A stretch of 64,000 bases of DNA from Planctomycetia bacterium (lineage in GTDB: Bacteria; Planctomycetota; Planctomycetia; Pirellulales; UBA1268), in contig JBAXUY010000002.1 in the NCBI GenBank assembly GCA_037129475.1, positions 50,170 through 114,169 on the forward strand, read 5' to 3'. Shown in pieces: positions 12,443 through 53,947 of this stretch (positions are counted from its first letter, which is position 1; each line of letters opens with the position of its first letter). Both the position numbers and the translations under genes were made by a program. The notes under the pieces were generated by a model that was not told the DNA's origin, ran no database searches, and saw only the letters and a program-made list of their open reading frames with translations.

Positions 12443-12690
12443 CCGGCTTCGGGCTCCCCATATCCCGTCGCCGGACGTTCACTGCGCCCATCCATGGGCT
12501 CCGTTCACTCGGAGTGACAGGCGCTGCGCCATCCTGGCTCCGCTGGTCACTCACGCCGGCTCCCGGGACGTGGGGAGCCCGAAGCCTCCCCCGTAGCGAC
12601 AGAGCTCCAGCTCTGTCGATCGACAGGCCTGGAGGCCCGTAGCGAACGTCCGGCGAGACGGTACGGGGTAACCCCGAGCCGGCGCACGCG
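12443..12690 (+). repeat. Composite structured intergenic element, copy A (long-range stem, embedded REP, inverted partial arm)
   Basis: The 5' arm GGCTTCGGGCTCCCCA (12445..12460) pairs with TGGGGAGCCCGAAGCC (12571..12586). It is followed by a REP unit. An inverted partial copy of the 5' arm region lies at 12644..12690. About 70 percent identical by eye to 36098..36277. Confidence 0.6.
12593..12648 (+). repeat. REP-like two-hairpin palindromic element (copy a, 3' hairpin degenerate)
   Basis: GTAGCGACAGAGCT-CC-AGCTCTGTCG-AT-CGACAGGCCTGGAGGCCCGTAGCG. Confidence 0.75.
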
Positions 12691-21391: not shown

Positions 21392-21442
21392 GGACGGAGC
21401 TCCAGCTCTGTCCGTTCGACAGGCCTGGAGGCCTGTCGCTAC
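21388..21442 (+). repeat. REP-like two-hairpin palindromic element (copy b, most complete in this orientation)
   Basis: GTAGGGACGGAGCT-CC-AGCTCTGTCC-GTT-CGACAGGCCT-GG-AGGCCTGTCG-CTAC. It lies between convergent genes. The TAG of the glycosyltransferase (21389..21391) and the stop of fhcA (CTA on the plus strand, 21439..21441) are both inside it. Confidence 0.85.
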
Positions 21443-34330: not shown

Positions 34331-34406
34331 GTAGGGACAGGGCTCCAGCCCTGTCCACCGACCACGTAGGGACGGAGCTCCAGTTGGCCTGGAGGCCTGT
34401 CGCGAC
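34331..34406 (+). repeat. REP-like element (copy c, rearranged/duplicated)
   Basis: GTAGGGACAGGGCT-CC-AGCCCTGTCC is a perfect 10 bp stem carrying an A>G and T>C compensated pair relative to other copies. It is followed by GTAGGGACGGAGCTCCAG fused to TTGGCCTGGAGGCCTGTCGCGAC. It lies in the divergent HIT/scpA intergenic region. Confidence 0.75.
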
Positions 34407-35223: not shown

Positions 35224-36059
35224 TCGACAACGCCCCGCTCCGCTCGCTCGTCCACAAGGGGCTCACGATCGAGGGCTACTCCCGCGCGGCGGTGCAGAGC
35301 TACTGGCGGATCCCTGAATTGAAATTGGGGTTCGACCTGGGCGCGCAGCCGTGGAGCTTCATGGCCACGAGCACGTGGTTTCTCACCCACACGCACCTCG
35401 ATCACATCGCGGCCCTGCCCGTGTACGTGGCCCGGCGGCGAATGATGAAGATGGAGCCGCCCACGATCTACATGCCGGAGAGCGCGATCGAGCCGATCGA
35501 GAAGCTCTTGAAGGCGGTGAGCCGGCTCGACCGCGGCCGCCTCCCCTGCACGCTCCTGCCCGCCCGGCCGGGCGACGAGATCGAGCTCTCGCGGGAGCAC
35601 GTGGTGACGGTGTCGGGCACCTGCCACACGCTGCCGAGCGTGGGATTCGTGGTGTGGGAGCGGCGGCGGAAGCTCAAGCACGAGTTTCAGGGGCTGCCCG
35701 GCGACAAGATCCGTGATCTCCGGCTCTCGGGGGTCGACGTGACGCACGAGGTGCGCACGCCGCTCGTGGCCTATCTCGGCGACAGCTCCCCGGAGGGGCT
35801 CGACCGCTGTCCGGCGATGTTCGAGGCCATGGTATTGATCACGGAGCTCACCTTCGTGGCCCACGCCCACCGCAAGGAGAAGATCCACAAGTTCGGCCAC
35901 ATGCACCTCGACGACCTGCTCGCCCGCCGCGAGCGGTTTCACAACGAGGTGATCATCGCCACGCACTTCTCCACGCGCTACACCGACGACCGCATCCGCC
36001 GGATCCTCGCCAAGAAGCTCCCCGACATGCTCGACGGCCGCCTGCACGTTTGGCTCTAG
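35220..36059 (+). CDS. MBL-fold metallo-hydrolase (RNase Z-like)
   Basis: The ATG at 35220 overlaps the scpA stop (ATGA). HxHxDH motif in WFLTHTHLDHIAALP. Further His/Asp ligands lie in TCHTLPSVGF and KFGHMHLDD. Confidence 0.8.
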   Translation: MIDNAPLRSLVHKGLTIEGYSRAAVQSYWRIPELKLGFDLGAQPWSFMATSTWFLTHTHLDHIAALPVYVARRRMMKMEPPTIYMPESAIEPIEKLLKAVSRLDRGRLPCTLLPARPGDEIELSREHVVTVSGTCHTLPSVGFVVWERRRKLKHEFQGLPGDKIRDLRLSGVDVTHEVRTPLVAYLGDSSPEGLDRCPAMFEAMVLITELTFVAHAHRKEKIHKFGHMHLDDLLARRERFHNEVIIATHFSTRYTDDRIRRILAKKLPDMLDGRLHVWL

Positions 36060-36097
36060 AACGGGCTTCAGCGTGGCTTGGCCTCGACGCGCCCAGT

Positions 36098-36277
36098 CCG
36101 GCTCGGGGCTACCCATGCTCCATCGCCGGACGTTCGCCGCGGCCCTCCCGGCCTCGGCTCACTCGACTTCGACTGCGCTTCGGCATCCTGCCTGCGCTTG
36201 TCTGCATACGCCGGCGATTGGAGCACGGATAGCCCCGAGCCTCCCCTCTTCGTAGCGACAGAGCTCCAGTTCTGTCG
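36098..36277 (+). repeat. Composite structured intergenic element, copy B (ends in a single REP hairpin)
   Basis: The 5' arm GGCTCGGGGCTA (36100..36111) pairs with TAGCCCCGAGCC (36230..36241), the same 142 nt span as copy A. It ends with GTAGCGACAGAGCT-CC-AGTTCTGTCG (36252..36277). Confidence 0.6.
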
Positions 36278-36295
36278 GTCTGTCACAATGCACGC

Positions 36296-37450
36296 ATGAA
36301 CGCTCCCCGCCATGCCTACGTGCACGTCCCGTTCTGTCGCCACCGGTGCGGCTATTGCGATTTCACGCTCGTGGCGGGGCGAGACGATCTGATCGAGCGG
36401 TATTTCGCGGCGCTCGCGATCGAAATCGAGCGAATCTCGAATGTGCCCGACGCGACGTCTGCTTCGGCGTGTCTGGAGCTAGACACGCTCTATCTTGGCG
36501 GCGGCACGCCTTCGCATCTCGGGCCCGACGGTCTACGGAAGCTCTTTGCATTGCTGCGCGAGCGGCTCGTGCCTGCCGCAGGGGCGGAGGTGACCGTGGA
36601 GGCGAATCCACTCGATGTGACCGGCGACTTCGTAACCGCCTGTCGCGATCTCGGCGTTACGCGCGTGAGTCTCGGGGGGCAGTCGCTCGATGCCGCCACG
36701 CTCCGGGCGCTCGACCGCGATCATGCGCCCGCCGACGTGCAGGGGGCCGTGAGCCGGCTGATCGACGCCGGCCTCGTCGTGAGCCTCGACCTGATGACGG
36801 CCGCGCCGGGGCAGACGCTCGCCGGGGCGGAAGGCGATCTGGCTGCCGCGGCTGCGCTCGACGTACAGCATGTGTCGGTCTACTGCCTCACGTGGGAGCA
36901 GGGGACGGCGTTCGAGTCGGCGCGGCGGCGGGGTGACCTCGTGCCGGCAGAGGAGTCGCTCGAGCGGGCAATGTTCGAGACGGCGATCGATCGGCTCGAG
37001 GCCGCCGGCTTCGAGCACTACGAGGTGAGCAACTTCGCCCGTTCGGGCTTCCGCTGCCGGCACAACGAGGCCTACTGGGACTGCCGGCCGTGGGAGGCGT
37101 TTGGCCCGGGAGCGGCCCGCTTCGACGGCCGGACGCGGATCACGAACCATCGCAGCACGACGACCTGGATCGCGAAGACGCTCGCGGGGGAGGATGCGAC
37201 GGGCGAGATCGACGCGATGACCGCCGAACAGGCGGCCCGGGAGCGGATCGTGGTGGGGTTGCGCCGCCGCGATGGCATCGACCGCGAGGCCTTTCACGCG
37301 GTGAGCGGGTTCGACCTCGACGTGCTGGCCGGACCGGCGATCGCCCGCTGGGTGGAGCGAGGGCTGGCGACCGACGATGGCGCGCGCGTGCGGCTCACGC
37401 GGGCGGGGCTGCTCGTGTCCGACGCGCTGTGGGCCGACGTGCTCACGTAG
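36296..37450 (+). CDS. hemW: Radical SAM heme chaperone HemW (oxygen-independent coproporphyrinogen oxidase-like)
   Basis: YVHVPFCRHRCGYCDF (CxxxCxxC) ... LYLGGGTPS ... EANP ... RVSLGGQS ... YEVSNFAR...CRHNEAYW. Confidence 0.9.
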   Translation: MNAPRHAYVHVPFCRHRCGYCDFTLVAGRDDLIERYFAALAIEIERISNVPDATSASACLELDTLYLGGGTPSHLGPDGLRKLFALLRERLVPAAGAEVTVEANPLDVTGDFVTACRDLGVTRVSLGGQSLDAATLRALDRDHAPADVQGAVSRLIDAGLVVSLDLMTAAPGQTLAGAEGDLAAAAALDVQHVSVYCLTWEQGTAFESARRRGDLVPAEESLERAMFETAIDRLEAAGFEHYEVSNFARSGFRCRHNEAYWDCRPWEAFGPGAARFDGRTRITNHRSTTTWIAKTLAGEDATGEIDAMTAEQAARERIVVGLRRRDGIDREAFHAVSGFDLDVLAGPAIARWVERGLATDDGARVRLTRAGLLVSDALWADVLT

Positions 37451-40400
37451 GGACGGAGCTCCAGCTCTGTCCTCCGACAGGCCTGGAGGCCCGTCGCTGC
37501 GCCCGGCGTCGCCGGGCCGCCCACGCCGCACAGGCTGCTCCGATTCCGACGAGCACGATCGTGGCCGGCTCGGGCACCACGATGATGTCGAGCGACGTGC
37601 CGCTTGCACCCACGCGCACGTAGACGTCCTTGCTTGGCAGAGCGGTGCCGCTCCAGCCGCCGGTGCCGTTCGTACCGCTGAGATTGATCGTGAACAGGCT
37701 CGTCAGGTTCATGCCCGCCGTGGCCGAGCCGAAGCCACCGGGCAGCACGAGGCTCGACAGGCTGTCGAAGCGAACGATCGGGAACACATACTGAGTGTTC
37801 GCGACGAAGTTCTGCGGCGCACCGTTCACGTCCGGTCCCGTCGAGGAGAGCGTCCAGAGGTTGAGGTTGAACGTGGACGAGTTCGACAGCCCTGACAGGT
37901 CGAGCGTGCCGCCCGTGCCGACCTGGATCAGGTCCCAGCCATTCACGTTGCCGGCGGTGCCCGAGACATCGAACAACTGCCAGTTGTAATTGCCGCCGGC
38001 CGCAAACACGGCGCCCGCACTCGTGATCGTGCCGGGCGAGTTGCCCGGCGTGATCGTGCCGCCGCTGCCCACCGTGATCGTGCCCACCGTGCCGCTGCCG
38101 GCGAGGATCGCCCCCGCGTTGATGTCGACCGCCGAGGCGAGGCTCGCGCCGGACTGCACGAACACCGTACCGGCATTGATGTCGAGCGGCCCGGTGAACG
38201 TGCTCGCTCCGGTGAACCTCACGAGGCCCGCACCGTTCTTGGCGAGCGTCCGCCCCGAGCCGGTCTCGCCGAGCGACGCGATCGTGACGTTGGTCACGGC
38301 GTTGATCGCCGAGTTGGCGGTGAGCGTGCCCGAGCCGGTGAAGGTAAAGGCGCCGTTCTCGGTCTCGTTGCCGATCGCCACACTGCCACCGAGCGACCAG
38401 GGGGTCGAGATGGTGCGTGCATCGGTGCCCGTGCTCGACAGCGTGCCGCCGTTGAGGGCGGCGGCCAAGCCGAGGGCGGCGTCGGCGCCGATCCGGATTC
38501 GGCCCGCGGAGAGCGTCGTCCCGGCCTGCGAGTTGGGAGTCGTGAGCGTGAGCGTCGCGGCCCCCGCCTTGGTGAGCGTGTAGCCGCTCACGGCGTTCAT
38601 CGAGACGTCACTGTCGAGCGTGACCGTGCTCGCGGCGAGCAGCTGGACGCCGTTGGAGAACGAGAGCAGGCCCGAGTCGGTCGTGTCGCCGAGCGTCGTG
38701 CTGCCGTTCAGGGCGACGAGATTCGCGAGGTCGCGGGGCGCGGTGCCGGTGCTCGAGAGCCGGCCGCCGGCGAGCGTGACGGTGCCGGCCGTGCCGAGCG
38801 CGTTGTCGGCGCCCAGCCGCAGCCGGCCCTCGGTGAGCGTCGTGCCGCCGGAGTAGCTGCTCGCGGCGGTGAGCGTGAGCGTGCCCGCGCCCGCCTTCGT
38901 GAGCGAGTACGTGCTGCCGGCGGCCTGGGTGATCTGGCCCATCTGTACCTCGCTCAGGAGCGCGAGGGTGCTGCTTGAGAGCAGCGTCGAGGTGCCGGTG
39001 AACGCGAGCGGGCCGTTGTCGACCGTGTCGCCGAGCGTCGAGCTCCCGTTGAGCGTCATGGCGTTGGCGATCGTGCGGGTGGCCGAGCCGGTGCCGGAGA
39101 GCGTGCCGCCGGCGAGCGACACGGTGCCGGTGCTCAAGGCGCCGTCGTTGCCCGCCCGTACGCGGCCCGCGGCGAGGATCGTGTTGCCGTGGGTGTTGGA
39201 GCCCGTCAGCGTGAGCGTGCCCGTGCCCGACTTCGTGAACGCCTGGCTCGTGCCGGCGAGCTTGGCCATCGTCACGTCGCTCACGAAGCTCACCGTCGAG
39301 GTCGTGGTGAGCGTCGTCGTGCCGGTGAACGCGAGGGGCGCGATGTCGGTGGCGTCCCCGAACGTGGCCAGGCCCGTGAGCGACACGGCGTTGCCGATCG
39401 TGCGGGCCGCGGAGCCCGTGCCAGACAGGATGCCGCCGGTGGTGAGCGTGAGCGTGCCGGTGGCGCCGAGGGCGTAGTCGTCGCCGAGCTGGAGCCGGCC
39501 CGCGTTCACGGTCGTGTTGCCGTAGGCGTTGGAGCCGGTGAGCGTGAGCGAGCCGGTGCCGCTCTTCGTGAGGGCGAACGTGCTGCCCGAGGTCTGGGTG
39601 AGCGAACCGATCGTCACGTTGCTCAGGGCGCCGATCGTGGAGCTGGCGACGAGCCGGAGCTGGTTGAGCGTCAGGTCGCCCGTGTCGGCGGCGTCGCCGA
39701 GCGTCACCGAGCCGGTGAGCGTGACCTGGTTGGCGATCGTCCGGGCGGCGGCGCCGTCGCTCGACAGGGCCCCGGTGGTGAGCGCGACCGTGCCAGACGA
39801 GCCGAAGGCGGCGTCGCTGGCGACGCGGATCCGGCCGGCGGTGAGCGTGGTGTTGCCGTAGTCGCCGGTGCCGGTGAGCGTGAGCGCGGCCGTGCCGGCC
39901 TTCGTCAGGTTGAAGCCCTGCCCCGCGATCGGGCCCATCGTCACGCTGCTGGCGATGCCCACCGTGGAGCTGGCGAGCAGGGTCGTCGTGCCGGTGAGGG
40001 CGAGCGTGCCGGAGTCGGTCGTATTCCCGAGCGTCACGCTGCCGCTTTGGATCGTGATCGCATTGGCGATCGAGCGGGCGACCGTGCCGGTGCCGGAGAG
40101 CGTGGTGCCGGCGGCGAGCGAGAGCGTGCCGGAGCCGAGGGCCGTGTCGCTGCCGAGCCGGAGAATGCCCGTGCTCAAGATCGTGTTTCCGTAGTTGCCG
40201 GAGCCGATGAGCGTGAGCGTGGCTGAACCGCTCTTCGTGAGGTCGAATCCGGCAGACGTGCCCGTGACGTTCGCGAGCGTGACGCCGCTCAACACCGTGA
40301 GCGTCCGGCTGCCGGTGAGCGTGGACGTGCCGGCGAACGTGAGGGCCGCCGTGTCGGTGGCCGCACCGAGTGTCACGTTGCCGTCGAACACGACCGGCCG

Positions 40401-43400
40401 GGAGATCGTGCGGGCGGTCGTGCCGGTGCCCGTCACCGTGACGCCCCCCGCGAACGTCGCCGTGCCGGTCGTGCCGAGCGCGTTGTCGTTGCCGAGACGG
40501 AGCACGCCGGCATTCACCACCGTGTTGCCGTAGGCATTGGAGGCGGAGAGCGTGAGCGTGCCGTTGCCCGCCTTCGTGAGCGCGTTCGAGCCGCCCGAGA
40601 CGGCGCCCGAGAGCGTCACGCTGCTCGACACCGTGAGCGTACGGTCGGCCGAGAACGAGGTCGTGCTCGAGAACGTGAGCGGCGCGGTGTCGCCCGAGGC
40701 GGCGCCGAGCGTGGCATTGCCGGCGAGCACGAGCGGCCGGGCGACGATGAGGGCGGTGGCGCCCGTGCCGGTGAGCGTGACGCCCTGGTTGAGCGTGACG
40801 GTTCCGGAACCGCCGAGGGACGTCGCATTGCCGATCCGTACCGTGCCTTCAGCGATCGTGGTGCCCGCCTGCCCGCCCGTCCCCGTGATCGTGAGCGTGC
40901 CCAGGCCCGCCTTCGTGAACAGGTACGTTCCGGAGACGACGTTCATCGTGGCGTTGCTCGCGAACGTCACCGTGCTCGCGGCGGTGAGCGTCGAGGTGCC
41001 CGTGAAGGAGAGCGCGCCGTTGTTGGTCGCGTCGCCGACCGTGACGGTGCCGCCGAGCGACACGGGGTTGGCGACCGAGCGGGCCGTGGCCCCGTCGCTC
41101 GAAAGCGTGCCGCCCGCGAGCGTCACCGCGCCGGTGCTGCCGAGGGCGAAGTCGCCGCCGAGCAGGATCCGGCCGGCTGAGAGCGTCGTGCCGCCGTAGG
41201 AGTTCGACCCGGAGAGCGTGAGCGTGCCGGCGCCGGCCTTCGTGAGCGTGCGGCTCGTGCCGTCGTTGCCGATGTTGCCCGAGAACACCACGTCGCTCGG
41301 CAGCGTGATCGTGGCGTTGGCCGTCATCGTCGCCGGGCCGGTGAACGAGAGCGTGGCGTTGTCGGTCGTGTCGCCGAGGGTCACGCTGCCGGCGAGGCCG
41401 ACCGAGTTGCCGAACGACCGCGGGTCGGAGCCGACGCCGGAGAGCGTGCCGCTCGTGAGCGTGAGCGTGCCCGAGCCGAAGGCGGTGTTCGAGCCCGCGC
41501 GAACCTCGCCGGCCGCGAGCGTGAAGCCGCCCGTGAAGGTGTTGCCGCCGTTGATCGTGAGCGAGCCGGCCCCCGACTTCGAGAGGCCGAGCCCGCCCGA
41601 GAGCGTGCCCGACAGGACGGCGTCGCTCGCCGCGACGAGCGACTGCACGCCCGAGCCGGTGCCGTTGCCGGAGAGCGTGAGCGTGCCCGAGTTGACGGCG
41701 TCGCCGAGCGTCGTGGTGGCCGAGATCACGAAGTCGTTGGCGAGCGTGCGGGCGGTCGTGCCGTCGCTCGTGAGGCCGCCGCCGGCGAACGTCACCGTGC
41801 CCGACCCGAGCGGGCTGTCGGCCCCGAGCTGGAGCAGGCCGCCCTGCACGTTCACGGCGCCGCTGCCGCTGCTCGTGCCGCTGGCGAGCAGCGTGCCCGA
41901 GGCGAGCGTCGTGGGGCCGCCGTAGGTGTTGGTGCCCGAGAGCACGAGCAGGCCCGCGCCCGTCTTCGTGAAGCCGTTCGCGTCACCAGTGCCGCTGCCG
42001 ATGGGGCCGGAGAGCCTCACGGTGCCGTCGTTGGAAATCGTGGTGGTCGTGACGAGCGTCGTCGGCCCGGCGAACGTGAGGCTGCCGGTCGAGGTGCCGC
42101 CGAGCGTGACGGGGCCCTCCACGCGAAACTCGCCGCCGTAGGTGCGGGCCCCCGCGTCGGTGCTCTGGATCACGACGGTGCCGGTGGAGCCCGAGAGCGC
42201 CGTGCCCTTCGCGGTGAGCGAGCCGGCCACGCCGCCGAGCACGTTCGACCCGGGGCCGATCGCGAGCACGCCCTGCTGGATCTCGGTGCCGCCGACGTAG
42301 GTGTTGGCGGTGTTGGTCATCGTGAGCACCTGGCTCGCATCGGAGCCGCTGAAGACGAGCTTCAGGCTGCCGGCGGAACCCGAGTCGGTGAACGTGGGCG
42401 TGAGCGTGCCGCCGGCGGTGAGCGTGAGCGTGCTCGCGGAGCCACTCGAGTTGGTGACGATGCCCGTGCCGCTCACCGATTCGAACGAGTCGGAGTAGCC
42501 GGCGAGGTCGAACGTGCCGGAGAGGCCGCTCACGCCCGTGAGGATCTGGTTCGACGCCCCGAGCTTCACGGTCGCGCCGGCCGCCACGGAGGCGATCGCG
42601 TCGGTCTGGCCGGCCCTGGTGCTCGAGAGCACGAGCGTGCCGCCCTTCACCGTCCAGTCGGTTTCCACGGCATTCGTCGACGAGCCGGAGAATTCGACCG
42701 TGCCCCCGGTGACGCGGAGTTCCCCCGGAAGGTTCGCCGTGCCCGTCGTCCGGTTGATCGCGCCCGAGAGCGTGAGCCTGCTGCCCGGGGCGCTCGACAG
42801 TTCCACGATTCCGCCCGCCGTCTGGTAGACGGTGCCGGTGACCGTCTGATCGACGGGCGTGGAGAGTTGCAGCGTGCCGACGTTGCCCGAGTAACTCGAC
42901 GCCGTGAACTGGCCCGTCGGGGCGGGGGCCGTGGCCGAGAGCGACAGGACGAGCGTGCCATAGTCGACTTTCGTCGCACCCGAGTATGCGGCCGTGGCCG
43001 AGAGCGTTCCGGCACCGGTCTTGGAGAGACCACCTGAGCCGGTGATCGGCGTGGCGAAGTTCACCGTCTGGCCGTTGGTGTGGATGCTCGCCTGCTTGCC
43101 GCTGGCCACCGCGGCGAACTTGCCCGAGAGGTCGGTGTTCGTGCCGCTGTAGAAGAGCGTGCCGCCTTGGAAGTCGATTTCGTTGCCCGTGGCACCGGTC
43201 ACGTTCGCGAGCTGGTTGTCGTTCGAGAAGTCGAGATAGCCGGAGATGAGCGTGACGTCGCCCGTGAACGTGTTGGCCGAGCCGAGCCGGACGCGGCCGC
43301 CGCCGCCGTCGCCGCGGATCACGACCTGCGTGGGGTTCGTTCCGTCGGCGATCGCCGGGGCGAACGTGAGCACGCCCTGGCCGCCGCCGAGCCGGTAGGT

Positions 43401-44033
43401 CTGCGTGCCGCCCGCGTCGGTGTAGGGCGTGAACGATCCGTTGTAGGTGAGCGTGGAGGCCGAGCCAAGCGACAGGTTCGCGATGTTCGTGAGCCCGGCG
43501 TAGTCGCGTTTGTTGAAGTCGATCGTTTCGTTCGTGCTGCTCGCCGTGATCGCGAGGGCGCCGTTGGGGTTGTCGTTGATCCGGTTGCTGGCGAGCCATG
43601 AGGTGACGCTGCCGTAGGGGCCCGACGCGGAGAGGGCACCTCCGGAGAGGGTCACGTTGCCCTCCGCGGGGAACGCGGTGCCGGACGAGAACGTGACCAG
43701 ACCGTTGCCGATCACGGTGCCGCCGGAGTACGTGTTCGTGCCGGAGAGCGTGAGCGACGAGCCCCCCAGCTTCTGGAGCGTCGCGGAGCCCGACACCGGT
43801 CCTGAAATCGTGATCGAGTTGCCGGCGTTGATCGTGCGGGTGCCGGTGCCGGCGAGCGCGAACGGGCCGGTGAACGTGAGCCCGCCCGACACGCCGCTGC
43901 CTGTCGATCCGGCGGTGATGCTGCCGGACAGCGTCACGCCGTTGGCGATCGTGCGGTTCGAGCCGGTGGAGTAGATGTAGCCGCTCGAGAGCACGAGCGC
44001 GTCGGATCCGAGCGCGGCGTCGTTGCCGAGCAC
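37443..44033 (-). CDS. Giant autotransporter-associated beta-strand repeat protein, C-terminal portion with PEP-CTERM anchor (downstream part of a frameshifted gene)
   Basis: 2,196 aa ORF with no signal peptide and a GTG start inside repeat sequence. Dozens of units of the type LTKxGxGTLTLSGSNxYxGxTxxxxGxLxLG. C-terminus VVPEPATIVLVGIGAACAAWAARRRR is a PEP-CTERM motif. It is contiguous with the upstream ORF if one G is added at 44041..44048. Confidence 0.85.
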   Translation of the reverse strand: MLGNDAALGSDALVLSSGYIYSTGSNRTIANGVTLSGSITAGSTGSGVSGGLTFTGPFALAGTGTRTINAGNSITISGPVSGSATLQKLGGSSLTLSGTNTYSGGTVIGNGLVTFSSGTAFPAEGNVTLSGGALSASGPYGSVTSWLASNRINDNPNGALAITASSTNETIDFNKRDYAGLTNIANLSLGSASTLTYNGSFTPYTDAGGTQTYRLGGGQGVLTFAPAIADGTNPTQVVIRGDGGGGRVRLGSANTFTGDVTLISGYLDFSNDNQLANVTGATGNEIDFQGGTLFYSGTNTDLSGKFAAVASGKQASIHTNGQTVNFATPITGSGGLSKTGAGTLSATAAYSGATKVDYGTLVLSLSATAPAPTGQFTASSYSGNVGTLQLSTPVDQTVTGTVYQTAGGIVELSSAPGSRLTLSGAINRTTGTANLPGELRVTGGTVEFSGSSTNAVETDWTVKGGTLVLSSTRAGQTDAIASVAAGATVKLGASNQILTGVSGLSGTFDLAGYSDSFESVSGTGIVTNSSGSASTLTLTAGGTLTPTFTDSGSAGSLKLVFSGSDASQVLTMTNTANTYVGGTEIQQGVLAIGPGSNVLGGVAGSLTAKGTALSGSTGTVVIQSTDAGARTYGGEFRVEGPVTLGGTSTGSLTFAGPTTLVTTTTISNDGTVRLSGPIGSGTGDANGFTKTGAGLLVLSGTNTYGGPTTLASGTLLASGTSSGSGAVNVQGGLLQLGADSPLGSGTVTFAGGGLTSDGTTARTLANDFVISATTTLGDAVNSGTLTLSGNGTGSGVQSLVAASDAVLSGTLSGGLGLSKSGAGSLTINGGNTFTGGFTLAAGEVRAGSNTAFGSGTLTLTSGTLSGVGSDPRSFGNSVGLAGSVTLGDTTDNATLSFTGPATMTANATITLPSDVVFSGNIGNDGTSRTLTKAGAGTLTLSGSNSYGGTTLSAGRILLGGDFALGSTGAVTLAGGTLSSDGATARSVANPVSLGGTVTVGDATNNGALSFTGTSTLTAASTVTFASNATMNVVSGTYLFTKAGLGTLTITGTGGQAGTTIAEGTVRIGNATSLGGSGTVTLNQGVTLTGTGATALIVARPLVLAGNATLGAASGDTAPLTFSSTTSFSADRTLTVSSSVTLSGAVSGGSNALTKAGNGTLTLSASNAYGNTVVNAGVLRLGNDNALGTTGTATFAGGVTVTGTGTTARTISRPVVFDGNVTLGAATDTAALTFAGTSTLTGSRTLTVLSGVTLANVTGTSAGFDLTKSGSATLTLIGSGNYGNTILSTGILRLGSDTALGSGTLSLAAGTTLSGTGTVARSIANAITIQSGSVTLGNTTDSGTLALTGTTTLLASSTVGIASSVTMGPIAGQGFNLTKAGTAALTLTGTGDYGNTTLTAGRIRVASDAAFGSSGTVALTTGALSSDGAAARTIANQVTLTGSVTLGDAADTGDLTLNQLRLVASSTIGALSNVTIGSLTQTSGSTFALTKSGTGSLTLTGSNAYGNTTVNAGRLQLGDDYALGATGTLTLTTGGILSGTGSAARTIGNAVSLTGLATFGDATDIAPLAFTGTTTLTTTSTVSFVSDVTMAKLAGTSQAFTKSGTGTLTLTGSNTHGNTILAAGRVRAGNDGALSTGTVSLAGGTLSGTGSATRTIANAMTLNGSSTLGDTVDNGPLAFTGTSTLLSSSTLALLSEVQMGQITQAAGSTYSLTKAGAGTLTLTAASSYSGGTTLTEGRLRLGADNALGTAGTVTLAGGRLSSTGTAPRDLANLVALNGSTTLGDTTDSGLLSFSNGVQLLAASTVTLDSDVSMNAVSGYTLTKAGAATLTLTTPNSQAGTTLSAGRIRIGADAALGLAAALNGGTLSSTGTDARTISTPWSLGGSVAIGNETENGAFTFTGSGTLTANSAINAVTNVTIASLGETGSGRTLAKNGAGLVRFTGASTFTGPLDINAGTVFVQSGASLASAVDINAGAILAGSGTVGTITVGSGGTITPGNSPGTITSAGAVFAAGGNYNWQLFDVSGTAGNVNGWDLIQVGTGGTLDLSGLSNSSTFNLNLWTLSSTGPDVNGAPQNFVANTQYVFPIVRFDSLSSLVLPGGFGSATAGMNLTSLFTINLSGTNGTGGWSGTALPSKDVYVRVGASGTSLDIIVVPEPATIVLVGIGAACAAWAARRRRAQRRASRPVGGQSWSSVPT
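37447..37500 (+). repeat. REP-like two-hairpin element (copy e)
   Basis: GTAGGGACGGAGCT-CC-AGCTCTGTCC-TC-CGACAGGCCTGGAGGCCCGTCGCTGC. It contains the hemW TAG (37448..37450). On the other strand it is translated as the last 18 codons of the giant protein. Confidence 0.85.
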
Positions 44034-47000
44034 GAGCGAGCCCCCCCCTGCACGTTCGTCGTGCCGTTCTTACCAGCTCCGGCCGACGCACTGACGATGA
44101 GGGTGCCGGCTGACACGTTCGTGGTGCCGCTGTAGGTGTTGGCTCCGTTGAGCGTGAGCGTCGAGTTGCCGGCCTTCGTGAAGCCGTAGCTGCCGGTGAG
44201 CGGGCCCGTGAGCGTCACGTCGGCGCCGAGGGTGAGCGTGCGGTCGCCGGTGAGCACGCCCGTGCTGGAGAGCGTGAGGGCGGCGTTGTTCGTGCCGCTG
44301 CCGAACGTCGTGTTGCCGTCGAAGCTCACGCGCGAGTTGCCGAGCGCCTGGGCCACGGTGCCCGACGTGGCCAGCGTGCCGCCCCCGAGCGAGAGGGTGC
44401 CCGTGCCGAGAGCCGTGCCCGAGCCCACGAGCGTGGTGCCGGCGTTCAGCGACACCGGGCCGGAGTAGCCCGTGTTGGTGCCGGTGACGAGGAGCGTGCC
44501 GGCCCCGGCGTGCACGAACGTGCCGCTCCCGGCGAGCGTGGTGGCGAGCGTGGTCGTACCCGAGGCGGCCGTGGCGGTGCCCGAGGTGAACCGGAGCGTG
44601 CCGGTGTTCACGAGGTCGCCGGGGCCGGAGAGCGCGAGCGTGGTGACGGTGGTGTTGCCGGAGCCGGAGAACGTGCCGCCGGCGACCGTGAGGCTCGTGG
44701 CGGTGTTGGTGACCATGTTGGCGAACACGCCGCCGGCGTTGATCGTCACGTCGCCCGCGACGCCGTTGGTCGCGGAGTTGAGGAGCGTGCCCGAGCCGCT
44801 CACCGCGATCGCCCCGTTGAGCTTCGTGCCCGAGCCACTCACGGCGAGCGTGCCTTCGCTGACGGTGCCGCCGCCACCGAACGAACTCGTGCCGTTCAGG
44901 GTGAGCGTGCCGGTGCCTGTCTTCGTGAACGCGTTGCTGCCGGTGAGGCCGCGGGTGAAGAGCACGTCGCTGGCGAACGAGAGGGTGCCGCTGCCGACGA
45001 GCGAGCTCGTGCCGGTGAACGTGAGCGAGCCGGTGTTGACGGCGTCGCCGAGCGTCGAGTTGCCCGTGAACTGCACGGAGTTGTTGGCAATGCTGCGTGC
45101 CGTCGCCCCGTTGGAAGAGAGCTGGATCCCGCCGATCGAGAGGGCTCCGGTGCCGAAGGCCGTGCCCGTGGCGAGTTGCACGAGACCTGAACCGCCGAGC
45201 GTGGCGGTGCCCGAGTAGCCGGTGTTGGCCGTGTTCATCACGAGCGTGGCGCTGCCGCTGCGGTCGAAGCTGCTCGTGCCGCTGATCGGCGCGGTGAATG
45301 CGACCGTGCCACTGGTCGCCGTGACGTTGATCCCGTTCGTGGCCGTGATCGTGCCGGTGTTGAGCAGCGAGCCGCCGGCGCCCTGAACCTGGAGCCGGCC
45401 GACCGTCGTGCTCACGGTGGTCGCGAACGCGCCGCCGTCGAGCGTGACCGTGCCTGAGAGGGCATTCGCCCCAGCCGACGAATTCGTCAGTGTGCCGGAC
45501 GTGTTGACCAAGACGTTGCCAGTGAGCGTGGAAGAGGCGGCCAAGGTGAGCCCGCCACCAGTGATCGTCGTGCCACCAAAGCCGTTGGAGCCGCTCAGGG
45601 TGAGCGTGCCGGCCCCGGCCTTCGTGAAGGCGCCGGTGCCCGAGAGCCGGGTGAACGCGACGTCGCTCGCGAGCGTGAGCGTGCGGTCGCCGACGAGCGT
45701 GCCGGTGCCGGAGGCGAACGTGAGCGTGCCGGTGTTCACGGCGTCGCCGAGCATCGTGTCGGCGACGACCCGGATCTGCGTGTTGGCGAACGTGCGGGCC
45801 GTCGTGGAGTTCGACGAGAGCTGGGCGCCCTCGAGCGTGAGGAGGCCCGTGCCGAGCGAGGAGTTGTTGCCGGCCTGCACGAGTCCTGCGCTCCCGGTCG
45901 ACACGGTGGCCGTGTATGCGGCGAGGCTGCCGCTCATCACGAGCGTGCCGGTGCCGGTGCGGGTGAAGGAGCCGCTCGATCCGGACAGCGGCGCCGAGAA
46001 CGTGGTCGTGCCGCTCGCCGCCGTGACGTTGATCGCCGTGGCGGTGAGCGTGCCCGTGTTCGTCACCGCGCCGCCGCCGCCGCCGAGGGTGAGCGTGCCG
46101 AGCGAGGTGGCGCTCGCCCCGGTAAACGTGCCGCCATTCACCGTGACGTTGCCCGTGATGCCGTTGGCGACGCTGTTGGTGAGCGTGCCGGCCTTGAGCG
46201 TGACGGAGCCTGACACCGAGCCGCCCGCGCCGATCGTGAGGTTGCCCGCGCCGTCCTTCGTGAGCGTGCCGCCGTTGCCCAGCACGGAGTTGATCGCCGC
46301 GGCACCGGCGTTGTTGACCGCGTAGGAGCCGGCGGAGAGCGTGCCGGTGGAGACCGTGCCGCCCGTCAGCGAAAACGACGCGAGCGTCTGGGAGAAGCCG
46401 CCGAGGTCGAACGTGCCGCCCGACATCGAGAGCGTGCCGGTCGTCAGGAGCCTGTCGGCACCGCCGAGCTTGAGCGTGCCGGCGGAGATCGACGTCGAGC
46501 CGGTGTAGGTGTTGGCCGCGTTCAGGAGCAGGAGGCCGGCGCCGTTGTTCGCCAGCGACATCGATCCTGTGAGGACGCTGCCGATCGTGGCCGTGCCGGA
46601 GGCGAAGTTGGCCGTGAAGGGCCCGTTGACCGTGAGCGTGCCGCTCGTGATCGCGCTCGTGCCGCTCGTCACCGACCCCGAGGCGAGCGTCTGGGAGTTG
46701 CCCGCCCCGAGGTCGAACGTGCCGGCGCCCGTGATCGAGAGCGTGCCGGTGCTGGCCAGTACGTTGCTGCCCCCGAGTTTCAGCGTGCCGCCGGCGAGCG
46801 TGGTCGCGCCGGTGTAGGTGCTCGTGCCGTTGAGCAGGAGCGTGCCGGCGCCGCTCTTCGTGAGCCCGGCGGCACCGGCCAGTGTGGCATTCACCGTGGC
46901 CGTGCCCGTGGCGACGCTGGCGGAGAAGGAGCCCGTTGCGGTCAGCGTGCCGCTCGTGATCGTGCTCGTGCCGCTCGTGATGTTCAGGGCGGCAAGCTGC

Positions 47001-48568
47001 TGCGACTTGGCGTTTAGATCGAGTGTCGCGGCGCCCAGCGACAGCGTGCCGGTCGTGATGAGCCTGTTGTTGTCGCCCAGTTGCAGGGTGCCGGCACTCA
47101 CCGTCGTGAGGCCGGTATAGGTGTTGGAGCCATTGAGCAGGAGCGTGCCGGCGCCGGTCTTCGTGAGCGTCTTGCCTGAACCCGCGAGGACGGTACCCAC
47201 GGTGACGGTGCCCGAGGCGTTGCTGAAACTGAAGCCGGTGCTTCCGGTCGTCAGCGTTCCGCCCGTCACCGTGCCCGCCCCGGTGGCGCTGAAATTGCCG
47301 ATCGTCTCGGAGAAGCCGCCGAGATCGAACGTGCCGCTGGCCAGCGTGACGTTCGCCGTGTCGGCGATCCGGTTGCTCGCGCCCAGCTTGAGCGACCCCG
47401 CATTGATCGTGTAGTCGCCCGTGGACGTGTTGCTGCCGGACAGCACGAGCGTGCCGGCGCCGCTCTTGGCGAACGTGCCCGACCCCGCGAGGACCGTCGC
47501 GAGCGTGTTCGTGCCGGAGTCGATCTGGAACGAAAATCCGTTCGAGGCCGAGATCGTGCCGGAGCCGATGCCGACGTTCGTGGCGTTGAACTGGGCGAAC
47601 GACTGGGTGCCGGTCATCACGAGCGAGCCGCTCGTCATCGTGAGCGTGCCGCTGCCGGAGCCGAGGGCGTTGGCGACGCCGAGCGTGAGCGTGCCGCCGC
47701 CGCTCACGGTGGTCGTGTCCGTGTAGGTGTTGGTCGCGCTCAGCGTGAGGTTGCCGGAGCCCGTCTTCGTGAGGCCGCCCGAGCCGGCGAGGACGGTGCC
47801 GACCGTGGCCGTGCCGGCGTCGTTCGTGAATGAGTAGTTGCTGGCGGTGAGCGAGCCCCCGACGAGGCCGACGCCGGCGGACGCGGAGAACGTGCCTGAC
47901 GAGACGTTGAAACCCGTGAGATCGAGCACGCCGCCCGACATCGTGACGGCGCCGGTCGAGGGAAGCGCGACGTCCGAGGCCGCCTTCAGCGTGCCCGACG
48001 TGATCGTCGTGCCGCCCGAGTAGGAGTTGTTGCCGGAGAGCGCGAGCGTGCCCGGCCCGCTCAGCGTGAGCCCTCCCGCTCCGGCGATCACGCCCGACAG
48101 CGTGAGGGCGTTCGCGGAACTGTTGGTCACGAGGAGCGTGTCGTTGAGGCGCAGTTCCGCCGAAATCGTGTTGCTGCCGCTCGCGGCCGTCTGGTTCAGG
48201 ATGGCCGAGCCGGACGACGTGACGTCGAACGTGAGCTTGTTCGCGGGGGCCGCCGACGAGATCGTGTACGCCGCCGTCCCGGTGGGATCGCCGAGATCGA
48301 GCCTGCCGAGCGTCACAGGCCCGTTGAGCGAGATCGTTTGCCCACCAGTGATGTCGGCCGTGACGCTCGCCCAAGCGCCGACAGCATTCGGCGCAGTGCC
48401 GGTGCTCCACAACGAACCCGTTGTCCAAAGAAATGCACCACTGCCCGTCTGCAGCCACGTCACCTGCGCACTCGCCTCCGGCAGCCCCACGAGGGCCGCG
48501 ATCGCAAGGAGCAGGCCGCGGAGGGAGGCGGAGCGGAGGAAACCCATCCGTCGAAGGTCGTATGGCAT
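43934..48568 (-). CDS. Giant autotransporter-associated beta-strand repeat protein, N-terminal portion with signal peptide (upstream part of a frameshifted gene)
   Basis: ORF 43934..48691 with the start placed at MPYDLRRMGFLRSASLRGLLLAIAALVGLPEASAQ (ATG at 48568, alternative at 48547). The same repeat family continues throughout. The last 37 aa or so after the G8 tract (ARSCSATTPRSDPTRSCSRAATSTPPARTARSPTA) look like out-of-frame translation. Confidence 0.85.
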   Translation of the reverse strand: MPYDLRRMGFLRSASLRGLLLAIAALVGLPEASAQVTWLQTGSGAFLWTTGSLWSTGTAPNAVGAWASVTADITGGQTISLNGPVTLGRLDLGDPTGTAAYTISSAAPANKLTFDVTSSGSAILNQTAASGSNTISAELRLNDTLLVTNSSANALTLSGVIAGAGGLTLSGPGTLALSGNNSYSGGTTITSGTLKAASDVALPSTGAVTMSGGVLDLTGFNVSSGTFSASAGVGLVGGSLTASNYSFTNDAGTATVGTVLAGSGGLTKTGSGNLTLSATNTYTDTTTVSGGGTLTLGVANALGSGSGTLTMTSGSLVMTGTQSFAQFNATNVGIGSGTISASNGFSFQIDSGTNTLATVLAGSGTFAKSGAGTLVLSGSNTSTGDYTINAGSLKLGASNRIADTANVTLASGTFDLGGFSETIGNFSATGAGTVTGGTLTTGSTGFSFSNASGTVTVGTVLAGSGKTLTKTGAGTLLLNGSNTYTGLTTVSAGTLQLGDNNRLITTGTLSLGAATLDLNAKSQQLAALNITSGTSTITSGTLTATGSFSASVATGTATVNATLAGAAGLTKSGAGTLLLNGTSTYTGATTLAGGTLKLGGSNVLASTGTLSITGAGTFDLGAGNSQTLASGSVTSGTSAITSGTLTVNGPFTANFASGTATIGSVLTGSMSLANNGAGLLLLNAANTYTGSTSISAGTLKLGGADRLLTTGTLSMSGGTFDLGGFSQTLASFSLTGGTVSTGTLSAGSYAVNNAGAAAINSVLGNGGTLTKDGAGNLTIGAGGSVSGSVTLKAGTLTNSVANGITGNVTVNGGTFTGASATSLGTLTLGGGGGAVTNTGTLTATAINVTAASGTTTFSAPLSGSSGSFTRTGTGTLVMSGSLAAYTATVSTGSAGLVQAGNNSSLGTGLLTLEGAQLSSNSTTARTFANTQIRVVADTMLGDAVNTGTLTFASGTGTLVGDRTLTLASDVAFTRLSGTGAFTKAGAGTLTLSGSNGFGGTTITGGGLTLAASSTLTGNVLVNTSGTLTNSSAGANALSGTVTLDGGAFATTVSTTVGRLQVQGAGGSLLNTGTITATNGINVTATSGTVAFTAPISGTSSFDRSGSATLVMNTANTGYSGTATLGGSGLVQLATGTAFGTGALSIGGIQLSSNGATARSIANNSVQFTGNSTLGDAVNTGSLTFTGTSSLVGSGTLSFASDVLFTRGLTGSNAFTKTGTGTLTLNGTSSFGGGGTVSEGTLAVSGSGTKLNGAIAVSGSGTLLNSATNGVAGDVTINAGGVFANMVTNTATSLTVAGGTFSGSGNTTVTTLALSGPGDLVNTGTLRFTSGTATAASGTTTLATTLAGSGTFVHAGAGTLLVTGTNTGYSGPVSLNAGTTLVGSGTALGTGTLSLGGGTLATSGTVAQALGNSRVSFDGNTTFGSGTNNAALTLSSTGVLTGDRTLTLGADVTLTGPLTGSYGFTKAGNSTLTLNGANTYSGTTNVSAGTLIVSASAGAGKNGTTNVQGGARSCSATTPRSDPTRSCSRAATSTPPARTARSPTA
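44041..44048 (-). repeat. G8 homopolymer (C8 on the plus strand) at the junction of the two giant ORFs
   Basis: The coding strand reads AAC GTG CAG GGG GGG GCT CGC TCG. With 9 G it reads Q G G G S L V L G N D A A L G, which is exactly the frame of ORF 37443..44033. Confidence 0.9.
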
Positions 48569-48918
48569 GGTGGAACGCGGGAGGTGGGGTCGGGGCGGGA
48601 TTGAGGGGTGGGCAAGACGAACGGGCTGGGCTGACAACTCTGCCCGGTAAAACTCTGCGGTGTCGTTCATGGCTCGAGAATCAGCGATCACGCACCCGAA
48701 GGCGTGAACTGACGAGCGAAACGAGGGCCGACGACCGCGGGGAGAGGCTTACAACCAGAACGACCGGAACAATCCGTTCCGATCACACCGGCTATCGCCG
48801 ATAAGAACACTGCCGCAAAAGAAGGCCAGCGATTCTGCTCAGGCAGAACACGTTGACGGGTGCGTGCAGTAGCGTTTCCTTGGGAATCTTGGGGGCGGAT
48901 CGTTCCGCCGACCCATGT

Positions 48919-48946
48919 AGGGTACGTGGCCATTCCGGTGTGTCAA
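48919..48946 (-). promoter_or_regulatory. Candidate promoter of the giant surface-protein gene
   Basis: The minus strand reads TTGACA-16 nt-TACCCT, with an A/T-rich stretch (AAAATCAATTTCAGGCAATCCAAATTC) directly upstream. It lies in the least GC-rich patch of the window, about 350 nt upstream of the start codon. Confidence 0.35.
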
Positions 48947-49232
48947 GAATTTGGATTGCCTGAAATTGATTTTGCGCGATCCGACAATCCCGTGCGCAAA
49001 CCGTTGCTGTGCAATGCTTTCCGGGGGCGCCGCCCTGCCGAATTCACCCGCGAGAGGGGGTGATGGCTATGCTCGCGCATCCGATTGCCCCGCTGTGCGC
49101 GGCCTGCGGCTGCGGGGGTTCATCGACCTCGATTCTGATGGCTTCGTGGCCGAGGTGAAGAAGATCCGCGGCAAGAAAAACCCGCTCTCCACGGCCGCAG
49201 TCACAAGCCTGCGGGAGGAGTTCGCCGGCGCC

Positions 49233-49346
49233 GCGATCGCCCGCCGGGTGGAGCAGGGGCTTGCCACCGACGACGGCTCGCGCGTGCGGCTCACGCGGGC
49301 GGGGCTGCTCGTGTCCGACGCGCTGTGGGCCGACGTGCTCACGTAG
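49233..49346 (+). pseudogene. Duplicated 3' fragment of hemW (last 37 or so codons), fused to unrelated upstream sequence
   Basis: It encodes AIARRVEQGLATDDGSRVRLTRAGLLVSDALWADVLT, against AIARWVERGLATDDGARVRLTRAGLLVSDALWADVLT at the hemW C-terminus. The DNA is identical over 49279..49368 versus 37383..37472. No hemW-like sequence lies upstream of 49233. Confidence 0.7.
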
Positions 49347-49454
49347 GGACGGAGCTCCAGCTCTGTCCATCCGACAGGCCTGGAGGCCCGTCGCTACGTT
49401 CATTCGACAGGCCTGGAGGCCTGTCGCTACGTCGGTCTGGAGGCCCGTCGCTAC
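49343..49454 (+). repeat. REP-like element cluster (copy f: hairpin 1 plus three copies of hairpin 2)
   Basis: GTAGGGACGGAGCTCCAGCTCTGTCC, then CGACAGGCCTGGAGGCCCGTCGCTAC, CGACAGGCCTGGAGGCCTGTCGCTAC and a truncated GGTCTGGAGGCCCGTCGCTAC. The pntB stop (CTA on the plus strand, 49451..49453) is inside the last unit. Confidence 0.85.
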
Positions 49455-50881
49455 GAGAGGGCGGCGGTGAGGTCGAGAATCGCCTTCTTGCCGTCGGCGA
49501 AGTACATGAGCGTGTTGTCGGCGGCGAAGAGGGGATTGGGGATCCCCGCGAAGCCGGGCGAGAGCGATCGCTTCACCACGACCACTGTCTTCGCCTTGTC
49601 GACGTCGAGGATCGGCATCCCTGCGATCGGGCTCTTGGGGTCGGTGCGGGCCGATGGGTTCACCACGTCGTTGGCCCCGATCACGATCGCCACGTCGGTC
49701 TCCGGGAACGTGGGGTTGATGTCGTCCATCTCCCGGAGCTTCTCGTAGGGGATGTCGGCCTCCGCGAGGAGCACGTTCATGTGGCCCGGCATCCGGCCGG
49801 CTACGGGATGGATCGCGTACTCCACCGTCGTGCCCCGCTTCTCGAGGGCGTTCGCCAGCTCGCGGACGGCGTGCTGGGCCTGGGCCACGGCGAGGCCGTA
49901 GCCGGGCACGATCACCACCCGCTCGGCCCCTTCGAGCACCATCGCGATCTCCTCGGCGCTCGCGCTCTTCACCTTGCCCGCGTAGACGTCGTCGGCGTTC
50001 GCCGCCGTCGTCGTGCCGAGGCCACCGAAGAGCACGCCTGCGAGCGAGCGGTTCATCGCCTGGCACATGATCGCCGTGAGGATCAGCCCCGAGGCACCCA
50101 CCAGCGAGCCGGCGATCACGAGCACCGAGTTGTCGATCACGAAGCCGGCCGCGGCCGCGGCGAGGCCCGAATAACTGTTGAGAAGACAGATCACGACCGG
50201 CATGTCGGCCCCGCCGATCGGCATCGTGAGCGTGCAGCCCAAGGCGCTGCCCACGATCACGAGCAGCCAGAAGAGCAGGTTCGACGACGGGTTGGCACAC
50301 ACGCCCCAGATGAGCAGGAGCGTGGCGACGGCGAGGCCGAGGTTGATCCAATGGCGGTTGGGATCGGTCCACGCCTTCTTGAACTGCGGCAGCTCCTCGA
50401 GCTTGCCGAAGGCCACGAGGCTGCCCCAGAACGTGACGGCGCCGATCAGGCCGGTGAGCGCCGTGGCGATCGCGAACTGCGTCCAGGCGGGGAGCGGCGT
50501 GGCTGCGGCCTTGGCCGCGGCCGTGGCGTTCCAGAGCTCGGCGCCGGCCACGAGCGTGGAGGCCGCGCCGCCGAAGCCGTTCAAGAGCGCCACCATCTGC
50601 GGCATGCCCGTCATCGGATACTTGAGCGCCATCACCGCCCCGATCGCGCCGCCGATCGCTGCGGCAATCCCGAGCATCACGAGCGGCCAGGCGCCCTGGG
50701 CCGCCACGCTCTGCATCACGGGCTTCTCGAAGCAGGCTGCGAGGATCGCGATCGCCATGCCGGCGGCGCCGAGGTAGTTGCCCTTCACGGCCGTGCGTGG
50801 GCCCGTCATGAGCTTGAACGCCACGATGAACAGCATCGAGGCGGTGAGATACGCGAGGTTGATCCAGGCTTGGCTCGACAT
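49451..50881 (-). CDS. pntB: NAD(P) transhydrogenase subunit beta
   Basis: Full-length PntB pattern: an N-terminal polytopic domain and a C-terminal NADP(H) domain (VIVPGYGLAVAQAQH...HPVAGRMPGHMNVLLAEA...VIGANDVVNP). Confidence 0.95.
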   Translation of the reverse strand: MSSQAWINLAYLTASMLFIVAFKLMTGPRTAVKGNYLGAAGMAIAILAACFEKPVMQSVAAQGAWPLVMLGIAAAIGGAIGAVMALKYPMTGMPQMVALLNGFGGAASTLVAGAELWNATAAAKAAATPLPAWTQFAIATALTGLIGAVTFWGSLVAFGKLEELPQFKKAWTDPNRHWINLGLAVATLLLIWGVCANPSSNLLFWLLVIVGSALGCTLTMPIGGADMPVVICLLNSYSGLAAAAAGFVIDNSVLVIAGSLVGASGLILTAIMCQAMNRSLAGVLFGGLGTTTAANADDVYAGKVKSASAEEIAMVLEGAERVVIVPGYGLAVAQAQHAVRELANALEKRGTTVEYAIHPVAGRMPGHMNVLLAEADIPYEKLREMDDINPTFPETDVAIVIGANDVVNPSARTDPKSPIAGMPILDVDKAKTVVVVKRSLSPGFAGIPNPLFAADNTLMYFADGKKAILDLTAALS

Positions 50882-53893: not shown

Positions 53894-53947
53894 GTAGCGA
53901 CAGGCCTCCAGGCCTGTCGCTCGACAGAGCTGGAGCTCTGTCGCTAC
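53894..53947 (-). repeat. REP-like two-hairpin element (copy g, inverted orientation, both stems perfect)
   Basis: The plus strand reads GTAGCGACAGGCCT-CC-AGGCCTGTCGC-T-CGACAGAGCT-GG-AGCTCTGTCGCTAC, the reverse complement of the arrangement at the other loci. Confidence 0.85.

Follow-up and report, generated by a model that had tools for sequence, protein, structure and literature searches.

Does a run of eight G's within a giant gene act as a genetic switch, or is it the place where that gene is simply broken? The question is raised by a putative surface-protein gene in a 64,000-nucleotide (nt) stretch of contig JBAXUY010000002.1 (positions 50,170 to 114,169 of the forward strand; assembly GCA_037129475.1, Planctomycetia bacterium), which comes from a metagenome-assembled genome (MAG) and is referred to here, at its full length, as the window. 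A sequence-only reading of this DNA had noticed that the gene is split into two frames at the G run and had proposed a slipped-strand ON/OFF device, naming a sequencing error or a recent pseudogene as alternatives. Comparison with related loci favours a different answer. The gene, of about 3,707 amino acids (aa) when whole, is interrupted by a single lineage-specific frameshift in the G run that is, on balance, a genuine allele, and both of the alternatives named by the sequence-only reading are more likely than the switch.

The locus consists of two large open reading frames (ORFs) on the minus strand that share 100 nt in different frames, at the coordinates reported earlier. The site of the frame change is the run of eight G's (G8) at 44041..44048 on the minus strand (C8 on the plus strand), where the minus strand reads ACG ACG AAC GTG CAG GGG GGG GCT CGC TCG TGC. 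The reading frames and the signals that they carry are as follows.

43934..48568, minus strand: 5' reading frame as sequenced, 1,544 aa from an ATG, with a signal peptide, a PATR-repeat region of about 1,470 aa and, at its end, 35 aa read out of frame
43934..44041, minus strand: out-of-frame tail of the 5' frame, ARSCSATTPRSDPTRSCSRAATSTPPARTARSPTA plus stop, 35 aa, rich in Arg, Ser, Thr and Pro
37443..44033, minus strand: 3' reading frame, 2,196 aa from the first GTG, without a signal peptide
37443..48568, minus strand: whole gene without the frameshift, comprising a signal peptide, PATR beta-strand repeats and PEP-CTERM, 3,707 aa (with a run of six G's, G6) or 3,708 aa (with nine, G9)
48467..48568, minus strand: signal-peptide-like N-terminus, with a basic n-region, an LLLAIAALVGL core and ASA followed by Q (by inspection)
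37503..37577, minus strand: PEP-CTERM sorting signal, VPEPATIVLVGIGAACAAWAARRRR, with VPEP, a hydrophobic helix and an Arg cluster (RRRR)

The non-repeat tail after the run had been put at about 37 aa; it is present and measures 35. The in-silico insertion of one G that had been suggested as a check does give a single ORF, of 3,708 aa (...TNVQGGGSLVLGND...), and so does the removal of two (3,707 aa; ...TNVQGGSLVLGND...). Removing one G or adding two leaves the two frames unfused. The tract lies 41% into the 11-kb ORF. Alternative frames of the giant gene are also open over long distances, namely 44070..48458 (minus strand, 1,462 codons) and 41983..44091 (minus strand, 702 codons). Since a frame can stay open for 1,462 codons by chance in a GC-rich repeat gene, long open frames here say little about coding.

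The presence of the run is in itself unremarkable. The window has a GC content of 69%, and G8 is its longest homopolymer, followed by three G7 runs and one A7 run. Dinucleotide-preserving shuffles contain a mean of 4.7 G8/C8 runs against the single one observed in the window, meaning that homopolymers are depleted and that G8 by itself is not above chance expectation. The non-random part, as mapped by homology, is that the frame change falls within the window's single G8.

The two frames had been assigned to one repeat family, with the only signal peptide upstream, the only PEP-CTERM anchor downstream and the downstream GTG start in the middle of a repeat unit, and all of this holds. PF12951 (PATR) matches both halves (150 and 140 bits against a cut-off of 27; E-values of 1e-44 and 2e-41), as does TIGR02601 (151 and 117 bits; cut-off 19.85), and each half contains 9-11 beta-strand repeat stretches. 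PEP-CTERM is recognised in the downstream ORF only, by PF07589 (26.8 bits, cut-off 20.7, E-value 5e-6, residues 2153-2176) and by TIGR02595 (27.2 bits, cut-off 16, residues 2153-2177). A signal-peptide-like start, MPYDLRRMGFLRSASLRGLLLAIAALVGLPEASA followed by Q, is found by inspection on the upstream ORF only. As sequenced, the signal peptide therefore lies on the 1,544-aa ORF and the PEP-CTERM signal on the 2,196-aa ORF, and the two come together on one polypeptide only after repair of the tract. Sorting by exosortase is the family-level expectation for PEP-CTERM proteins (Haft et al. 2006, PMC1569441), and a beta-helical surface or adhesin-like role may likewise be expected at the level of the family. 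Neither half matches the beta-barrel translocator PF03797, so that the defining domain of a classical type V autotransporter is not found in them. Names given in source records, such as 'fibronectin-binding autotransporter adhesin', refer to the repeats alone.

Relatives of the gene were found at both the protein and the DNA level. A protein search with the 2,196-aa ORF retrieved three orthologues that are single ORFs: P0206 (3,688 aa), P0208 (3,697 aa) and P0207 (3,714 aa). Each shares 71% identity with the query over 99% of its length and carries both PATR and PEP-CTERM. When the window protein is repaired, it forms one blastp alignment with each of them, spanning residues 19-3677 at 68% identity; the final ~30 aa past the Arg cluster do not align. 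A further 17 homologues are shorter (1,761-2,259 aa). The PEP-CTERM motif stands at the end of all eight of the shorter homologues inspected and a signal-peptide-like N-terminus is present in seven, the exception being P0224 (1,761 aa), whose N-terminus starts within repeats. All 20 homologues read through the junction without interruption, and an independent start or signal peptide for the downstream 'gene' was found in none of the relatives examined. The sequence-only reading had staked its split gene on relatives lacking a separately initiated downstream gene, and 0 of the 20 homologues shows one.

Gene order supports the same conclusion. The window and two related loci, L003 and L004, have in common an L13-S9 pair, pntA/pntA2/pntB, the giant gene and a HemN-like radical-SAM gene, the last being cut at the contig end in L004, just beyond the giant gene. 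L003 alone extends the synteny to genes for ScpA, a HIT protein, an HD phosphohydrolase, a TRAM protein and a sulfatase. A further locus, L005 (a Logan contig), has no neighbours in common with the window. Genes neighbouring the giant gene in the window include a DUF1559/N-methyl protein and a sulfatase, both hallmarks of Planctomycetota. Because intact orthologues of ~3,700 aa occur in the same gene order, and because no separately started downstream gene is seen in relatives, the two ORFs are, judged by homology, the halves of one gene split at the G run.

Searches for closer relatives of the junction itself gave less. A 449-aa junction query returned only relatives of at most 36% identity and fewer than 790 aa (match lengths ~0.66-1.75 times the query), and a protein search with a 900-aa junction query returned no closer fragments. 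A genome scan gave one locus, L001 (MAG contig RGVT01000154.1), and a metagenome scan gave one locus, L002 (Joint Genome Institute metagenome contig Ga0214923_10002311). The L002 contig stops at the equivalent of window position 44198, 150 nt upstream of the tract and of a variable segment; strain heterogeneity or repeats may have broken the assembly there.

The size of the lesion can be read from the junction in the four related loci for which DNA is available there.

L003: GTC CAG GGC GGA TCG CTC, encoding VQGGSL
L004: GTC CAA GGC GGC TCG CTC, encoding VQGGSL
L005: GTC CAG AAT GGC TCG CTC, encoding VQNGSL
L001 (the closer MAG, 88-95% nucleotide identity): GTG GAT GGC GGC AAC CTG, encoding VDGGNL
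Window: GTG CAG, then GGGGGGGC, then TCG CTC, frameshifted and 2 nt longer

As had been asked of an orthologue comparison, the related loci show what the site looks like elsewhere: the gene is intact as a single ORF and the tract is missing. A homopolymer is absent from the homologous site in 4/4 loci (GGCGGA in L003, GGCGGC in L004, AATGGC in L005 and GGCGGC in L001), and no run of at least 7 nt occurs anywhere in the three orthologous genes. At the run, the window exceeds its in-frame relatives by exactly 2 nt, making the native length equivalent to G6. Accordingly, the form with two G's removed (VQGGSLVLGND) aligns without gaps to all 20 homologues. The form with one G added (VQGGGSL; G9) contains an extra Gly that is present in none of them. 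The sequence-only reading had likened this G9 form to an internal repeat of the protein, a likeness that fails at the decisive residue, as the internal paralogous repeat reads VQGGLL, is encoded CAG GGC GGC and lacks the extra Gly. Among the 85 Gly-Gly pairs of the gene, the one at the junction is the only GGG-GGG codon pair.

These observations are best accommodated by a recent frameshift allele. We infer that a synonymous C-to-G change first turned CAG GGC GGC into CAG GGG GGC, creating G6, and replication slippage would then have added two G's to give G8. Provided that the sequence is right, a ribosome beginning at the native start would produce a secreted N-terminal PATR fragment of ~1,500 aa that ends in 35 aa of nonsense sequence and lacks the anchor. 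The remaining two-thirds of the gene, on the 3' side (2,196 codons), would be either untranslated or made without a signal peptide, and a product of the latter kind would for that reason be non-functional. The population represented by the MAG would, in this case, carry a recent loss-of-function allele. Because any G8 is intrinsically prone to slippage, the frame may occasionally be restored; there is no sign that selection has shaped the tract as a switch.

Several findings speak for such an allele. The repaired protein aligns from residue 19 to residue 3677 in one piece, leaving one lesion only. Identity to the orthologues is 72% in the downstream half and 66% in the upstream half, so the former shows no excess divergence, and a test for relaxed constraint downstream of the junction gave no signal. 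The surrounding sequence also appears sound: tblastn of orthologous neighbours detected no frameshift in 13 syntenic neighbour genes, and 10/10 tested window ORFs are identical to deposited MEI62388xx proteins, with lengths matching those of homologues. By coordinates, the 7-nt runs at 15429..15435 and 62718..62724 fall in two of these ten ORFs. With its neighbours free of frameshifts and its ORFs exact, the assembly is not generally prone to indels. A consensus error of two extra bases from a native G6 is implausible on any sequencing platform. Together, the clean neighbourhood and the implausibility of such an error favour a genuine frameshift allele over an assembly error. There is also a precedent: in L001, a 35-nt deletion breaks this gene at another place.

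Four points weigh against this reading. What is available is the consensus of a MAG, and no second assembly from this population spans the tract, L002 ending short of it. An allele that is truly G9, with one base missed in calling, could not be told apart from G8. The open downstream frame is weak evidence of recency in a GC-rich gene. Finally, a change of +2 needs two slippage steps or one rarer double step.

The strongest competitor follows directly from the first two of these points. In an assembly or consensus error, the real sequence would be in frame and the gene intact, most plausibly as a true G9 under-called by one base, and this is a tangible possibility, though a clearly lesser one than the frameshift allele. 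Long-read or residual homopolymer errors are of this kind. An artefact would fit the MAG origin of the sequence, the location of the one frameshift found in the window within its longest homopolymer, and the lack of a second lesion or of excess divergence downstream. The different break in the same repeat gene of another MAG (L001) could likewise be an artefact. Antonov et al. (2013) expected BLASTp-validated singleton frameshifts to be mostly sequencing errors (PMC3711429), an expectation that keeps this rival substantial. On the other side, ~25 kb of neighbouring coding sequence, 7-nt runs included, is without frameshifts. An error starting from the native length, equivalent to G6, would have to be one of +2, which is unlikely. 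The alternative is a true G9 allele with its extra Gly, seen in 0/20 homologues, and this in turn requires a real expansion of the tract.

The reading that first drew attention to the locus, an evolved or incipient contingency locus, fares less well. Here, slipped-strand mispairing would toggle the gene between an anchored full-length form (G9/G6) and a secreted truncated form (G8/G7), which we consider improbable. A hypermutable tract that sets the frame does lie within the ORF (G8, where +1 or -2 restores the frame), and the tract is expanded relative to relatives under any reading. The product is giant and fast-evolving, with 68% identity to orthologues against 90-98% for most neighbours and a ratio of non-synonymous to synonymous substitutions (dN/dS) of 0.5. 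Eight G's is a length at which poly-G tracts phase-vary in other bacteria (PMC3711429), and the same superphylum has poly-G switching of repeat-rich surface proteins, in Chlamydia PmpG (PMC6740158). The single lesion and the undecayed downstream half would also fit a switch, but are equally expected for a recent mutation or an artefact.

Set against this, contingency loci are expected to have their tract at a homologous position in relatives or paralogues, and none is found there: it is absent in L001, L003, L004 and L005, the internal paralogous repeat reads GGC GGC, and the orthologous genes are without runs of at least 7. Nor are tracts over-represented or spread over several loci within the 64-kb window and the three orthologous genes. 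G8 is the sole run of at least 8 in 64 kb, with homopolymers depleted relative to shuffles (1 against 4.7). A tract 41% into an 11-kb ORF would make the OFF state costly. In addition, the nearest ON state (G9) adds a residue foreign to the family, and the native length (G6) is two steps away. Apart from the length of the tract and the kind of gene that holds it, nothing positive speaks for the proposed slipped-strand device.

Comparison with established systems points in the same direction. In Neisseria, Haemophilus, Campylobacter and Helicobacter there are many tracts per genome, usually near the 5' end of genes or in promoters, and these tracts have a conserved position, a polymorphic length and an ON state of native protein length. 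These features are not seen in the planctomycete gene, whose host is a free-living planctomycete known from a MAG. What it has in common with the loci of these host-adapted bacteria is a surface protein whose coding region holds a G/C homopolymer of 7-8 nt or more (criteria in PMC3711429), together with a frameshift that decides whether a full-length product is made.

The PmpG group of Chlamydia is closer, belonging to the same Planctomycetes-Verrucomicrobia-Chlamydiae (PVC) superphylum and consisting of large, repeat-rich, fast-evolving surface proteins with in-ORF poly-G frameshifts well past the start and no further decay (PMC6740158). The PmpG tracts are poly-G/C runs of 13-24 nt in the quoted cases, with positions conserved across paralogues and strains, and they vary in length among genomes, with many independent frameshifts (BMC Genomics 2019, PMC6740158). 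Unlike these, the planctomycete gene has one G8, absent from every relative examined. The Pmps are also type V autotransporters, whereas the planctomycete protein has no beta-barrel and ends in PEP-CTERM. Among PEP-CTERM/exosortase proteins (PMC1569441) with TIGR02601/PF12951, the repaired gene has the full architecture common to the 20 homologues; unlike those proteins, the gene as sequenced places signal peptide and sorting signal on separate polypeptides. The best-fitting category is that of an ordinary frameshifted gene, whether pseudogene or error. As in the ordinary homopolymer frameshifts of draft and MAG assemblies (PMC3711429), the event is a non-conserved singleton at a homopolymer, validated by homology, and nothing essential differs.

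A real switch would amount to a young phase-variable tract in a free-living, freshwater-type planctomycete, in which sub-populations switch a ~3,700-aa PEP-CTERM-anchored surface protein between anchored and shed or absent, a scenario we regard as improbable. In that case, the 35-nt deletion in L001 and the gene's hypervariability would both stem from one selective pressure on presence or absence of the protein, for instance through recognition by phages or grazers. No report of homopolymer phase variation in Planctomycetes was found in the literature searched, nor did a paper that names the related contigs or samples turn up there. A true mixture of tract lengths would be a rare documented case in a free-living planctomycete, and could help to explain the much faster evolution of giant PATR/PEP-CTERM proteins compared with their neighbours.

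Programmed recoding could in principle leave the gene functional as it stands, either by a -1 shift of the ribosome on G GGG GGG or by an extra G from transcriptional slippage, each of which would give the full-length protein; we rate this as highly improbable. In a formal sense G_GGG_GGG has the form X_XXY_YYZ, and the product of a -1 slip would contain ...VQGGGSLVL.... The 100 nt past the run also fold somewhat better than shuffles (z = -2.2), with 6/200 shuffles folding as well. This fold signal is weak, however, and the first hairpin begins 1-2 nt after the run, where 5-9 nt is usual. Compared with A/U-rich sites, all-G heptamers and G runs make poor frameshift substrates. Recoding is not conserved either, as the orthologues are in frame without the slippery heptamer, and there is no Rfam match in 36000..50000.

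The weakest alternative, that of two genuine, separately expressed genes as publicly annotated, has in its favour the deposition of the downstream ORF as a stand-alone protein (MEI6238905.1, 'autotransporter-associated beta strand repeat-containing protein') and a G run 7 nt upstream of the GTG that could mimic a Shine-Dalgarno site, but it is scarcely credible, being already contradicted, as far as homology can tell, by all homologues (20/20 are a single ORF across the junction) and leaving a downstream product without the signal peptide that its sorting signal requires for export, a GTG start within a repeat unit and an upstream ORF that terminates in 35 aa of out-of-frame sequence.

The gene thus belongs to a known protein family and carries an ordinary frameshift at a homopolymer. 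The value of the finding is mainly practical and lies in annotation: the public two-protein entry is better treated as one disrupted or mis-assembled gene of ~3,707 aa.

The giant gene also stands out from its surroundings in other ways. Its protein is 68% identical to those of the orthologues, compared with 90-98% for most neighbours (range 82-98%), and its dN/dS against L002 is ~0.5 at a dS of 0.2. These values mark it as a hypervariable surface gene among neighbours that are otherwise conserved.

Two further differences concern L001. At L001:4072 (window ~46093..46128), the 35-nt deletion mentioned above lies between CGGCAC direct repeats and frameshifts the gene; L002 and the window are intact there. 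Either a costly surface protein is repeatedly inactivated in nature, or repeat genes such as this one repeatedly give rise to artefacts in MAGs. At L001:6101..6320 (window 44058..43837), ~220 nt past the junction are highly divergent, between flanks that are 93-100% identical to the window. A gene-conversion donor for the window's own version of these ~220 nt was sought within the window, and none was found. Since the window resembles the distant L003-L005 over these ~220 nt, it is L001 that carries the odd segment, replaced or mosaic.

Repeats are found around the gene as well. A direct repeat of ~175 nt, with copies at 37328..37501 and 49224..49398 (plus strand) that are 93% identical, brackets the whole giant gene. 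It is made up of the last ~120 nt of the HemN-like gene and of the palindromic element that follows. Its second copy, situated between pntB and the start of the giant gene, translates to a HemN_C-like fragment and is absent from L003. The repeat may be a scar left by a rearrangement of the giant gene or by cassette replacement.

A 22-nt palindrome, GGACGGAGCTCCAGCTCTGTCC, occurs in six copies when up to three mismatches are allowed, where shuffles predict 0.01.

12597..12618, 21392..21413, 34335..34356, 37451..37472, 49347..49368 and 53922..53943: copies of the 22-nt palindrome

The copies examined sit just beyond gene 3' ends, and the palindrome looks like a dispersed element of repetitive extragenic palindromic (REP) or terminator type. 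The copy at 37451 is on the opposite strand and lies under the last codons of the giant ORF, where the ~30 terminal residues fail to align with the orthologues.

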